In this document: in pieces, positions 50,039 through 58,376 of the stretch
How the letters are laid out: every line of letters begins with the position of its first letter
Numbering within the stretch: position 1 is the stretch's first letter
NCBI GenBank assembly: GCA_039810425.1
Contig: JBDHWW010000021.1
Location: forward strand, 1-60,064
DNA: 60,064 nt
Direction: 5' to 3'
Source: Pseudobdellovibrionaceae bacterium
GTDB taxonomy: Bacteria > Bdellovibrionota > Bdellovibrionia > Bdellovibrionales > Bdellovibrionaceae
Translations under genes and position numbers: made by a program
The notes under the pieces: model-generated
Seen by the model: the letters and a program-made list of their open reading frames with translations, nothing else
What the model was told of the DNA's origin: nothing
Database searches by the model: none

Positions 50039-51598
50039 TTAAAATACTTTTGATAACCATACCTGGTCTTTGTCGTGAACTCGCTGATAACCGACTTTTT
50101 CGTAAAGCCTTCGGGCGGGGACTTTCTGTTCATCCACTTTGAGGAAAACCGTTTCAATACCATTCACTTTAAGCTCTTCATGAATGGAGGTCAAAAGTGC
50201 AAGAGCACTTCCTCGTCTAAGAAAAACTGAATTTGTGGCAATTCTATTGATCTCAGCACTATTACCATACTTATAAACCTGGGCGGCAGAGGCGATTTTA
50301 GAATCTAGGTGGTGGATGTAGACATTCTCGCTTCTGATCCAATTTAGAACCTCTTCTTCGGTTACTTCATGAAGATTCTCAATCGCATTTTTTATTTGAG
50401 CGGCATCCTCAACCTGTGCCTTATGAGCAGCGATAGATTGGCTCAAATTCAATAAGTTCATTTGATAATGGAGAAATGTCTCGATCCGATCTTTGAATCC
50501 GATTTCCTTAATGAGTTTAATTAGTTCCACGTCACTAGAAGGAATTTCAAAACGAAGTCTAAAGCCTTTATTGAAGGAGGTATGCTGAATGAACGCCTCA
50601 AGAAGTAATTCCGCGATAGCAATTTTAGTGGGGGAATCTGTAAGGTCTATAAATAGCTCAACGGTTCCCCAGTTGCCTTGAGGAAAACATCTTATGAAGC
50701 CAATAGGGTCGTTTTCTTTACAGATATAAAACCAGTTCATTGGCATTATTGAATTAAAGTATTCTAATTCATCCTCTAGGCCGATGTCATAGCCAGCGGA
50801 TTTGTCTAGTAATGGTTTGAGTTTGGAAAGATCCGCAGATTCAAATTTATTAATGCTATAAGCAGATAGGCGGTCTCCTGACTTTAAAAGTTGCGCAGAG
50901 TCCACAATTAGAATATCGCCAATGCGCTCAGTGGCTTTCCGATAGAGCGCGCCATTTTTGTCACAAACAATAGAGCATCCCTGTTGTGTGTCGGGAGGCA
51001 GTTTGTGTTCAGGATGAGTTCCAAAATTTATTTGGATAATCGGTTTTCCAAGTTTTCTCAAGCGTGGCATGATTTTGTGATCATCGGTCCATTGAAATGG
51101 TTTATTCCATCCCCAGTATCCGGGCCAAAGAATCAACTCCGCGTCAGATATTTCAGAAAATATTTGATCATCATGAATTTCACGGCAAAAGAAAACTCCT
51201 ATGGATCTTTCTTTAAATGAGAAAACTCTTCTTAAAGAAGACCCATCTTTGAAAAATAACTTCTCTGAATCTGTAAGACCTGTTTTGTGGATTTCAATAT
51301 TGTGTTCTGGCGACAAGAAATAAGCCCCGTTAATCACGCCGATTTTATTGGGAATCGCCGTCGGTATAAGTACGCCGATGTTGAGATGTATACTGGCCTC
51401 TTGAATTTTCTTAAGGCCGGATAAAATTGTGTCTGTGGGAATCTCTTTGACCCTGGCTGAAAATCCGGTGAGGGCACACTCCGGAAATGCAACTAGGTCA
51501 GCACCTAAATCTTTGGCTTGGGAGATTAAGTGTAGAATATCCTCCGTGTTTGCGGACGTTTTGACGTCATTTGATGTCTGAATGGCAGCAATTTTCAT
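50039..51598 (-). CDS. Carbon-nitrogen hydrolase (nitrilase superfamily) fused to tandem GNAT domains
   Basis: MKIAAIQ, LVAFPE, HK, FFCRE triad; C-terminal IATNSVFLRRGSA and ARRLYEKVGY. Confidence 0.8.
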   Translation of the reverse strand: MKIAAIQTSNDVKTSANTEDILHLISQAKDLGADLVAFPECALTGFSARVKEIPTDTILSGLKKIQEASIHLNIGVLIPTAIPNKIGVINGAYFLSPEHNIEIHKTGLTDSEKLFFKDGSSLRRVFSFKERSIGVFFCREIHDDQIFSEISDAELILWPGYWGWNKPFQWTDDHKIMPRLRKLGKPIIQINFGTHPEHKLPPDTQQGCSIVCDKNGALYRKATERIGDILIVDSAQLLKSGDRLSAYSINKFESADLSKLKPLLDKSAGYDIGLEDELEYFNSIMPMNWFYICKENDPIGFIRCFPQGNWGTVELFIDLTDSPTKIAIAELLLEAFIQHTSFNKGFRLRFEIPSSDVELIKLIKEIGFKDRIETFLHYQMNLLNLSQSIAAHKAQVEDAAQIKNAIENLHEVTEEEVLNWIRSENVYIHHLDSKIASAAQVYKYGNSAEINRIATNSVFLRRGSALALLTSIHEELKVNGIETVFLKVDEQKVPARRLYEKVGYQRVHDKDQVWLSKVF

Positions 51599-51785
51599 TA
51601 TAGTTCCTAAAATGACAAGAGGAGCGTCCTTCAAAAACCCAAATAATATTCAATTTCTCTCTTGCCAGTCATCGGAAATCCGCTTATTTTCAATGCATCA
51701 ATGGCTAATTAGTCTTCCAAAAATCCAGTTTTAGTTCCTTATCGCCTCCAGCGGAGGTCATTTCTTTTACTTTTTGGAGTTAGCT

Positions 51786-52445
51786 ATGAAAACAAGTTTT
51801 CACGAAGATTTTTATTCGTTCGCAAAGTACTACGATATCGCTTTTGATTTTAAAGATGTTCCTAAGGAATGTAATTTTATCGAGCAACTTTATTTAAAAC
51901 ATTCAAACAAGAATGGGACCTCCTTCATTGAGTTTGCCGCGGGGCCGGCTCTTCATGCTCTTGAGTTTGGAAAGCGAGGTTTGAATGTTGCTGCCGCGGA
52001 TCCTTCCGCGGAGATGGCAGCTTATGGACTACAAAAGGCTGAAAAGGCGGGTGTGCGGTTGAAGTATGATTGCGCTGACATGATTCACTATCGGTCATCG
52101 CAAAAGTATGACGTGGCTTCTATTCTGATGGATTCAACTTCTTACCTACTCACGAATGAGCAAGTCATAGTCCATTTTCAGTCGGTTGCCAAAATTCTGA
52201 ATCCAGGCGGTCTCTATGTTCTGGAAATGAGCCACCCACGGTCGGTTTTTCAAATATCTCAGTCAACAGTGTTGCCCCTTCAGGCTGCCGGATCCGATTT
52301 GAGTCTGTCGTTTGAATTTTTGCTTAATGATGGAAATGGATGGGGTTCTTTTTCCCGACGTAAGTTGTTGAAAACACTAATGTTAAATATGCGAATACTA
52401 CAAAATACTACGGCCCGGTGTGGAGCGGTCCTTGCTCTATGTTAG
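51786..52445 (+). pseudogene. Class I SAM-dependent methyltransferase, probably 3'-truncated near 52271
   Basis: YYDIAF, EFAAGPA, D.SAEM, ADM, LNPGGLYVLE; sequence after SQSTV looks non-coding. Confidence 0.6.
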
Positions 52446-52564
52446 GGCACGGGTAGTAGAGCTTTTTGAGCTTAGCTATAACCGCTTTGAGGTCATTTTT
52501 GTGTCATAAAACTGGCAGTGATGGGCCGTTTTATGGCATATTTGCCTCGCAAAAGGAGTTAGCC

Positions 52565-52810
52565 ATGTCCCAGGGTGAAGTTGAAAAATTCGAAGCCGGC
52601 GCCCCTGATCTGAAGAAGAGGCAGGCAGAACAAGAGCAGCAAATCCGCCAAGAGGTGGAGTCCACCTTTCCAGATATGGGCCCAGAGGCCCAAGAGGCTA
52701 TTATCCAGTCCCGTTTGAAGATCTTGAACAACCCTGGCCGTCCTACGCTCATTCAAGTAGATCTTGGAGAGGGCGCCAGCAAGAAAGCTAAGGACGATCT
52801 TTTTGAGTAA
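52565..52810 (+). CDS. Putative antitoxin (81 aa, acidic)
   Basis: AAGGAG SD, ATG 52565; stop overlaps the TTG start of the PIN gene. Confidence 0.6.
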   Translation: MSQGEVEKFEAGAPDLKKRQAEQEQQIRQEVESTFPDMGPEAQEAIIQSRLKILNNPGRPTLIQVDLGEGASKKAKDDLFE

Positions 52811-53252
52811 CCCACAAGCAGTGTTTTTTGATACTGGGGTGCTCATTGCCCTTTGTAACAAGTCAGAAAAGGCGATTGCAGAAGCCGCCATTGATCAAGT
52901 AGTGAAACTACCGCACGCGTCTCGCCATAGGGTCACTCCCTCATTGGTGGAGTTGTTTTATAAGTTGAGAAAAACCATTAGTCCTCACGACATTCAAAAA
53001 AACTTAGACTATTTAGGAATAACATTCCTTCCTGTCGACTCCGCGAAAGAGCAAGGTTTTTATAAAACTTTTTGTGACATTACTTACAAAAGTGAATTTG
53101 ATTATGCTGATTATTATCTTTGCCGAGCTGCTCTAATGTTTAAGCACTCGCTAGTATTAACGATTGATCGTGATGATCTTCCGCTTGCGCTGCGAAGAGC
53201 CCAAGAACATACCGGTTCCAAATCTCACACACAGTTGTTGCCACTTATTTAA
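52803..53252 (+). CDS. PIN-domain (VapC-like) ribonuclease toxin
   Basis: VFFDTGVLIA, SLVE, DYAD, LTIDRDD acidic tetrad. Confidence 0.85.
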   Translation: MSNPQAVFFDTGVLIALCNKSEKAIAEAAIDQVVKLPHASRHRVTPSLVELFYKLRKTISPHDIQKNLDYLGITFLPVDSAKEQGFYKTFCDITYKSEFDYADYYLCRAALMFKHSLVLTIDRDDLPLALRRAQEHTGSKSHTQLLPLI

Positions 53253-57400: not shown

Positions 57401-57805
57401 CGCCAAAGTGACTGTTCTTTGTGTGGATTCGTTGGTGAATGCCGCCAGGATCACGCTGTGGGAGGACTCATCACGCAAGGTTAACAACCGGCTGGTGCCG
57501 GTCTGAGGGTCTTGCTCATTTCCGTAGGCGCCGCGTATGTAAGTATAAAGGCTGCGCTCCTGCTTTTCGGCCCCGGCCGCCTTATTGAAGGTGATTTTGT
57601 GAGAGGGGACCAGAAGTTTAGTCAGCGCATCTACCAGGGATGATTTTCCTGAACCGACATCTCCCGTTAAAAGGTTTTGCCCACGGGCCGTATTCAGATG
57701 GCAGATATGTTTGTGAAAGGTTCCCCAGTTATAAACCTCCACTCGGTCCAGACGAAAACCGGGACGGCGGGCTTCGCCGAAGAGATCAAGTTGATTGTTT
57801 TGCAT
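54404..57805 (-). CDS. jetC: Wadjet SMC-like ATPase JetC
   Basis: VYNWGTF, TGDVGSGKS, long coiled coils, KSGGQKEK, VMIDEAF, VVTP. Confidence 0.93.
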   Translation of the reverse strand: MQNNQLDLFGEARRPGFRLDRVEVYNWGTFHKHICHLNTARGQNLLTGDVGSGKSSLVDALTKLLVPSHKITFNKAAGAEKQERSLYTYIRGAYGNEQDPQTGTSRLLTLRDESSHSVILAAFTNESTQRTVTLAQVFRIKKGEKNPDHFYVFANENLSIEKDFLNVRKDISEIRQALRKRNFDVTESFKEYSTRFRQEFGIKSEQALDLFYQAVSMKSVGNLTEFIRQHMLEKTDIENQIEELCASFEDLRSAHAAILTARQQIDMLKPISELGLYHEQELNLHHSQVQCRELLQNYFATKKMELLEQAIARFKEKQEKNNQRIEKIEIDLGEERQDRFKLATALHDNGGGRIQSLEAEKQQREKERDRRRHQEQRYQEHCKNLELATPLSIDDFVAQKNEVQNKKQDLAKQQATAEQDFIAIKIEVSQLQKEEDLLNQEIESLRQRQSNIPFISLKVRDEIARALGLTEAELPFVGELLQVKPSEAKWEGAIERLLRNFGLSLLVADEHYDRVSRYVNDTHLRGKVVYFRVKAEKMSITRFSAQSLPSKIDFRRDSVFFDWLRHELESNFNFECCETIEEFQRHLKALSIKGQMKVSAKKHEKDDRYPVSDRSRYILGWSNKEKIRVLKEQLHQLQTQGQTKIEQVTGIVNKRASLTKQLQSCEGLLHFQTFEEIFWQGLAENIEELGKQIAKISQESDVLATLKGLIEAADKKIKELDTHLGELQKEDGKLGANISYHTALLKQTREILELGDAQLTATLSSEITRLAAEQNLLAELTLGNIEKRESELRKSIQSRIDALDKALGRKKDKIVLGIRDFLHSFKEYSVNFDAALESLGEVRALLKTLETEDLPRHETRFYKKLKEDTINGMAIFQELLLKEQRIIESKIEVINACLRDIDYNPGTYICLLPNKSIDQEIVQFRNDLRVILSNTMGPDSVYTEQKFLEVKNIIDRFKGRPQFLEVDRKWTHKVTDVRNWFTFAASERFQSDMTEKEFYPDAGGKSGGQKEKLAYTVLASALAYQYGIDGSQDTPKSFRFVMIDEAFGRGSDDSARYGLTLFEKLNLQLLVVTPLQKIHVIQDYVDYVHMVHNEGSKNSRIHSLTIEQFRALKSRRQTGHPAMTMKEEVLEPQ

Positions 57806-58376
57806 GGTTTTCGTACTCCTGCAGGCGTTGGTCCATAGTTTCCAAAATTTGAGCGTCGAAGAGAGCGGCAATCACGCGAAGCACTTCCAACTTTTTCGCG
57901 TCATGGGTGAGTCTGCGCAAAACTCCCATGGTGATGGCTTTCTCAATCAGTGCTTCGACCGCTTTTCCTTGTTGTACCTCATGAGTGGAGGCGGGAAGGA
58001 AAATCTTCAGCATTTCCAAAATTTCCTTTTGATCCAGCACCAGCCGCGGATCGCTGGAACTGGATTCGTGTTCCGCCATTTTTTTGCGCAGTAAAGCCAG
58101 CAGTACACTCAGCTCAAAAGAGAGTTCTCGCTGTTGCACCAGACGCGGCAAGGCTTGAGTTTCTTCGGAGGCTTCTTCCGGAGAACTTTCTTGTCTCAAA
58201 AAAGCAAATCCGTAGTCGCGATGAATGAACAAACTTAAACCCAGATGGGCGAAGTACTCTTTGAGTTCCTCTTCATACTTAGATAGGTTTTGCCAAAGCT
58301 CAGAAGACCCTTCCCGGTAAAGAGGGCCTTTGAGCAAGGCGATAAGGACACGGGAGCGATGTATTTCAAACTGCAT
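57786..58376 (-). CDS. jetB: Wadjet JetB (DUF4194)
   Basis: LLKGPLYRE...W..L...YF..LGL...GFAFLRQ, LSFELSVLLALLRK; TAATG overlap with jetA. Confidence 0.88.
   Translation of the reverse strand: MQFEIHRSRVLIALLKGPLYREGSSELWQNLSKYEEELKEYFAHLGLSLFIHRDYGFAFLRQESSPEEASEETQALPRLVQQRELSFELSVLLALLRKKMAEHESSSSDPRLVLDQKEILEMLKIFLPASTHEVQQGKAVEALIEKAITMGVLRRLTHDAKKLEVLRVIAALFDAQILETMDQRLQEYENHAKQST

Follow-up and report, generated by a model that had tools for sequence, protein, structure and literature searches.

A selected consensus beta-clamp-binding motif at the N-terminus of JetC in a Bdellovibrionota type I Wadjet, a candidate accessory clamp tether

The JetC protein described here is, as judged from sequence, an ordinary type I Wadjet ATPase that bears a selected consensus beta-clamp-binding motif, QLDLF, in a short N-terminal leader. 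This tail likely binds the sliding clamp DnaN, and we favor, with a probability of about 55%, the interpretation that it is an accessory clamp tether that would aid loading of the complex and would add no sensing step. Among the JetC sequences compared, only one Bdellovibrionota-linked clade has the strict motif, and the wider type I family often retains a degenerate core of it.

The window (the whole stretch of DNA analyzed, 60,064 nucleotides) holds a complete type I Wadjet operon, jetA-jetB-jetC-jetD, running in a single direction with coupled ends (Table 1), and the best PADLOC matches of the four subunits are all type I profiles. The ATPase motifs of JetC are intact, with Walker A (G48-S55), the signature (S1006-Q1009), and Walker B (D1044-E1045) invariant or conserved, and a fold search returned JetC chains, with their SMC fold, as the top structural matches. 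JetD retains the acidic toprim residues E252, D295, and D297, invariant among 53 homologs, and matches 8B7F, 8Q72, and 7TIL in structure. The closest named loci to the operon belong to Bdellovibrio and Pseudobdellovibrionaceae assemblies, and its distribution is patchy, as it is present in 4 of 401 genomes sampled across the phylum. A viral contig scan found five stretches, none of them a relative, RNA data gave no listed carrier, and a scan for promoters and terminators gave no matches above chance level. Two small ORFs of 114 and 162 amino acids (52466-53252, plus strand) are convergent to jetD and have no Pfam match; the longer one, which starts with FFDTGVL and contains DYAD, we take to be PIN-like, and the two may form an antitoxin-toxin pair next to the Wadjet operon. 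Elsewhere in the window, a carbon-nitrogen hydrolase domain is fused to a C-terminal GNAT domain (50039-51634, minus strand), and a methyltransferase ORF (51774-52445, plus strand) seems, by eye, to be truncated or out of frame in its C-terminal part.

Table 1. Wadjet genes of the window and elements at the start of jetC
Feature	Position	Strand	Basis
jetA (kleisin), 493 aa	58376..59857	-	Pfam DUF3375, PADLOC JetA1
jetB (KITE), 196 aa, ATG 58376	57786..58376	-	Pfam DUF4194/MksE, PADLOC JetB1
jetC, SMC-like ATPase type I, 1133 aa	54404..57805	-	Pfam AAA_29 + SbcC_Walker_B, PADLOC JetC1 PDLC00512 1310 bits
jetD (aCAP + toprim nuclease), 387 aa	53254..54417	-	Pfam DUF3322 + JetD_C, PADLOC JetD1
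Shine-Dalgarno-like AGGAG (putative function), 10 nt 5′ of jetC ATG, inside jetB codons	57816..57820	-	Sequence
JetC leader, residues 1-16, ahead of head strand beta1	57758..57805	-	AlphaFold2
QLDLF, JetC residues 5-9, consensus pentameric beta-clamp-binding motif (by sequence)	57779..57793	-	Sequence, conservation 0.96 (10 clade members), consensus PMC11139829

Read from the minus strand (57805..57779), JetC begins with MQNNQLDLF. The available text of PMC11139829 gives the clamp motif as Q-aliphatic-x-[LM]-[FL] or a hexamer, with QLDLF as the strongest binder, and residues 5-9 fit the pentamer, as the original prediction had claimed in saying that JetC opens with a consensus clamp-binding motif. 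Its caveat that these codons overlap the 3′ end of jetB is also borne out: the jetB stop codon (TGA, 57788-57786) spans the codons of L6 and D7, giving an overlap of 20 nt that contains Q5-D7 and leaves L8 and F9 free. Translation from a start downstream of the motif, a possibility raised at the same time, is ruled out. Within 45 codons upstream of beta1 (F17), the only in-frame ATG, GTG, or TTG codons are TTG 57871 (38 codons) and ATG 57805 (16 codons), both of which retain QLDLF, and since there is no in-frame start between the motif and the ATPase head, a later start is impossible without cutting into the conserved beta1 strand. Contigs from the source run contain no alternative letters at the motif, and two strain contigs that are about 95% alike have no listed difference over 57707-57824; the strain contigs diverge from the assembly just beyond 57402. 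A single occurrence of the motif is weak evidence, as the chance of one N-terminal strict match somewhere per genome is about 10% by arithmetic from the host ORF count, so the case for the motif rests on conservation. JetC is the only one of 3333 crudely called host ORFs with a strict QL[SD]LF match within its first or last 20 residues.

Conservation was assessed in the query and 9 of its best 10 JetC matches (56-66% identity), P0008 being left out for its missing N-terminus. Q[LF]DL[FY] is present in all 10 of these full-length close-clade proteins and strict QLDLF in 8, which disposes, within this clade, of the concern that the motif might not be conserved. Q5, D7, and L8 show no variation; L6 and F9 are each kept in 9 of 10, with L>F and F>Y as the exceptions. 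Mean column conservation in the same set is 0.96 over residues 5-9, against 0.50 for residues 2-4, 0.57 for residues 10-15, and 0.91 for residues 17-30; the C-tail averages 0.29. A value of 0.96 is reached by 15% of all 5-residue JetC windows, none of them in the coiled-coil arms. The close-clade JetC proteins are monophyletic in the tree (12 rows, support 100/100). Among four DNA copies (the window, L002, L003, and L037), the codons of L8 and F9 have synonymous differences only, and the Q5 codon keeps an A at a serine wobble position of the jetB frame, from which we conclude that QLDLF is under selection in the jetC frame.

These patterns bear on another explanation, in which QLDLF plays no part in binding and arose only because jetB and jetC overlap and are translationally coupled. 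Both the start codon and the Shine-Dalgarno-like sequence of jetC (57801-57820, minus strand) are formed from the conserved jetB C-terminal E-Y-x-x-[HY]-A codons. Derivation of the jetC ATG from jetB His-Ala or Tyr-Ala codons accounts for the frequent Q at JetC position 2, with many M-Q starts, and the constraint that the jetB stop places on jetC accounts for an L6 codon ending in T and for D or E at residue 7. The strict motif also occurs at chance level genome-wide (2 matches in the 3333 host ORFs versus 2.3 expected), as a by-product might. Still, L8 and F9 lie past the jetB stop and are conserved with synonymous change, the overlapped residues 2-4 vary freely although Q5 does not, and LF or LxF cores are also found where the jetB stop sits at the jetC start codon with zero overlap. 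Overlap as the sole cause is thus largely rejected, and we consider this explanation improbable.

QLDLF is also predicted to lie in an accessible disordered segment. In an AlphaFold2 model of the single JetC chain, based on a 91-sequence alignment, pLDDT is below 50 for residues 1-11, coil continues to residue 16, and the first strand covers residues 17-27, in agreement with the flexible terminus that had been proposed; accessibility is judged here from the single chain.

The clamp of the host appears suited to such a tail. Its DnaN pocket residues T172, D173, H175, R176, L177, M364, P365, and M366 are kept among 30 phylum members. The host proteins that we take to be DnaE and MutS, picked out by signature patterns, carry QTSLF and QLSLL, respectively, the same motif type as JetC, and a DEDDh-type exonuclease of the host (L251:1177-1794, minus strand) has QMDLF near its C-terminal end. 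A 300-amino-acid host protein with a C-terminal QLNLF and no Pfam match is encoded at L252:825-1724 (plus strand). Of the natural consensus sequences, QLDLF binds the E. coli clamp most tightly, with a KD of 0.103 uM, according to the accessible part of 10.64898/2026.05.27.728225, and excerpts of PMC11139829 describe LF alone as able to bind the clamp, the Q being helpful and not required.

If the JetC tail acts as a clamp tether, known clamp chemistry suggests that L8-F9 would enter DnaN subsite I and Q5-L6 subsite II. The complex has been described as JetA2B4C4 in the portion of 10.1101/2024.02.17.580791 available to us, and its four JetC tails could give avidity on the two-pocket clamp. Tethering would concentrate the Wadjet complex on clamp-bearing, newly replicated DNA and, in the least secure step of the proposal, would speed loading on plasmids that are replicating or have just entered; whether to cut would still be decided by loop extrusion and JetD, as it is in other Wadjets. 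According to the available text of 10.1101/2022.10.04.510915, purified E. coli JetABCD needs no clamp to cut circles, and neither replication mode nor uptake route affects restriction in B. subtilis, which places the clamp outside the core decision. The original prediction went further and had the motif adding replication sensing to size and topology sensing. We find this too strong because the strict motif is clade-restricted, second-clade relatives lose theirs, E. coli and PA14 JetC have no motif, and published systems restrict plasmids whatever their replication mode and need only purified proteins to cut; accessory recruitment or a loading aid fits better.

A check of motif frequency at JetC N-termini across genomes, which had been suggested with the prediction, gave a divided answer, as the motif is kept in the close clade and its strict form is found in only 1 of 136 more distant representatives. 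About 450 type I JetC leaders were gathered, with starts in loci called by script; no archaeal locus turned up. Seven rows, non-type-I or duplicate, were excluded, as were two that were too short, and three starts were corrected by hand. Clustering at 50% gave 150 representatives, of which 14 with a missing anchor or an over-long leader were removed to leave the 136. A review-style Q-bearing consensus is present in 4 of 157 leaders, and a core is missing altogether from 42 of 157. Shorter forms are far commoner: 42 of 136 leaders contain LF, compared with 11.7 in shuffles, 7-21 residues from the head; an LF or LxF core is found in 43 of 78 leaders versus 3 of 78 C-tails; and M[DSNT]LF starts, equivalent to motif positions 2-5, account for 11 of 120 JetC versus 7 of 3333 host ORFs.

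The residues upstream of LF also look clamp-like. Among 40 LF leaders, S or D is at position -1 in 17 of 40 (p 1e-4), and 10 of 29 have an aliphatic residue at -2 (p 0.02). Q is at -3 in 6 of 22 leaders (p 0.002) and, with protein positions 1-2 removed and the clade counted once, in 5 of 15 versus 6 of 274 host N-termini, Q at protein position 2 having been set aside as a likely overlap effect; at nearby offsets Q is found in 0 of 30 (-2), 1 of 38 (-1), and 1 of 15 (another neighboring offset). These p values are generous, as the sequences are related, the numbers small, and the offsets several, and the query of the representative search included the JetC leader. From these profiles we conclude that wider type I JetC often retain a degenerate LF or LxF core and that LF leaders have a clamp-like upstream profile.

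A second JetC clade points in the same direction with another form. Among 34 near neighbors, 17 carry the hexamer Q[IL]E[LM][DE][FL], close to QVELEF, given as the Pol III alpha hexamer motif in the accessible part of 10.64898/2026.05.27.728225. The pattern is lost in 13 of the 34, and the whole leader is gone in 3 of these. P0042 and its 33 neighbors, with QIELDF, QIEMDF, and QLEMEF leaders decaying or absent at 84-90% head identity, form a natural gain and loss series. Two long leaders excluded from the counts have further variants: P0181 has tandem Q-L-S-x-x repeats at residues 32-62, including QLSLL and QLSLNL, and P0222 has QLSLDF. The commonest family form, [LM][DEN]F, lies a fixed 11 residues from beta1 in 24 of 26 cases, and a hexamer-position Q is not enriched in such leaders (3 of 54 in one set, 1 of 22 among representatives), so a family-wide hexamer reading of the L-D-F core is not supported. 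A bolder proposal extends the clamp to most JetC of the large type I subfamilies, with the LF or LxF leader as a degenerate clamp motif that switches between pentamer (QLDLF, QTSLF, MDLF) and hexamer (QIELDF, QLEMEF) and the clamp as the missing Wadjet loader, marking replicating or freshly transferred plasmid circles; on the sequence patterns above, we hold it to be doubtful.

The same conserved core could instead serve inside the Wadjet complex. In this main alternative, the hydrophobic core of the leader docks onto the JetD aCAP domain, replacing the IFDR of JetB, or onto the JetA C-terminal winged helix or JetB, and the resemblance to the clamp consensus arises incidentally, from a family-wide L-D-F core that gained Q5 and F9 in one clade. 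The IFDR of JetB contacts JetD according to the available texts of PMC10586767 and 10.1101/2025.03.10.642339. JetB of the PA14 and E. coli type starts with IFDR or FFDK on a long extension, and the JetC of these systems has no LF; JetB here is short and has no IFDR extension, so its JetC leader might substitute, and JetC leaders of this subfamily often read LFS or LFD. A D directly after LF in 10 of 40 leaders (p 0.004) agrees with such docking, and the fixed spacing of the L[DE]F core to the head looks more like a docking element than a free clamp motif. The AlphaFold2 single-chain model, moreover, cannot reveal order induced by a partner.

The distribution of jetD fits docking onto JetD less well, although the leader may yet dock onto JetA or JetB. 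In 83 loci with downstream DNA, jetD is adjacent in 13 of 15 with LF and 43 of 44 with a hydrophobic-x-F/L core, but it is also retained in 19 of 24 with no leader motif, leaving no clean complementarity, and by eye 0 of 41 leaderless rows have an IFDR-like JetB start. Conversely, two LF-bearing systems, L215 and L217, have no adjacent jetD; they belong to the actinobacterial JetABC/MksBEF loci L211-L217, all of which are without it. The R/K of IFDR is matched at +3 in 0 of 40 leaders, and a hydrophobic residue at +4 is unenriched (11 of 40, p 0.28). With no complementary distribution either, we rejected a relocated IFDR motif on JetC. Loss of the whole leader in the 3 of 34 close relatives, at 84% head identity, also speaks against a docking element, and docking leaves the invariant Q5 and the Q at -3 in separate lineages unexplained. 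Overall, we think it unlikely that docking accounts for the leader, and we prefer the accessory tether.

A tail that binds the clamp may also act on the host chromosome, parking or clearing the motor at forks and thereby protecting or organizing newly replicated host DNA. In favor of this possibility, the chromosome carries most of a cell's clamps. In M. smegmatis, MksB (MSMEG_0370) colocalizes with DnaN in 99% of cells, and griselimycin makes its foci disappear, as described in the available part of PMC11329512; B. subtilis replisomes both block SMC and release it, according to excerpts of PMC12322038. The patchy operon with its intact jetD is, by contrast, the pattern of a defense system, and C. 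glutamicum MksBEFG is located at the poles in the accessible text of PMC10123090. All 120 mycobacterial MksB-type relatives lack the leader motif, so mycobacterial MksB was dismissed as a motif-bearing precedent; these proteins are likely orthologs of M. smegmatis MksB, judging by family and by a MaoC neighbor at one locus, and four of four such loci have no adjacent jetD. Their sole recurrent Q-motif is QYELL or QFELL near residue 690, in a region that is coiled coil in the AlphaFold2 model. We judge a role on the host chromosome to be very unlikely, and the accessory tether remains our preferred reading.

The tether would matter for how Wadjet finds its targets. No Wadjet loader is known in the literature surveyed, and excess linear DNA competes for Wadjet in vitro according to the available text of 10.1101/2022.10.04.510915, so it is a question how the complex locates a small plasmid in the presence of a large chromosome. 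A clamp tether, if true, would be a simple answer for one Wadjet branch and would directly link an SMC defense motor to the replication clamp; the family-wide loader, if true, would be the first case in bacteria of an SMC complex coupled directly to the sliding clamp. Natural JetC variants, whose leaders range from strict and hexamer to degenerate or absent, are a ready comparison set. The original prediction had known of no report of Wadjet-clamp coupling, and our full-text literature searches, with subscription papers and bioRxiv supplements beyond their scope, likewise gave, among the results listed, no report of a JetC clamp motif or of a link between Wadjet and the clamp. The words "sliding," "DnaN," and "PCNA" are absent from the review PMC10586767, as are "replication" and "replisome" from 10.1101/2023.11.03.565488.

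Compared with the studied Wadjets, E. coli GF4-3 (PDB 8AS8/8BFN/8Q72/9QXT) and PA14 (8DK1-3), the system described here is alike in gene order, domain families, ATPase motifs, and fold. It belongs to a different subfamily (PDLC00512), and the motif is absent from the 12-residue leaders of E. coli GF4-3 and PA14 JetC, whose JetB has the IFDR extension that JetB here does not. The JetB IFDR-JetD aCAP contact is also made by a short hydrophobic N-terminal motif of a type I Wadjet, but on another subunit and with an R/K and a trailing hydrophobic residue that JetC does not match. M. smegmatis MksB, a JetC/MksB-family ATPase that tracks DnaN foci, is a precedent for fork association, with no direct clamp binding described in the available part of PMC11329512. 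A further likeness is to the proteins with a pentameric QL[SD]LF motif, namely DnaE, Pol II, PolC, Pol Y1, and MutS, as JetC has the same consensus, conserved above its flanks, in a host with a conserved clamp pocket. The motif of JetC lies at a predicted-disordered terminus, with the N-terminal placement seen in Hda. What sets JetC apart from the known carriers is that its motif, a candidate clamp motif by sequence, sits on an SMC-family defense ATPase.
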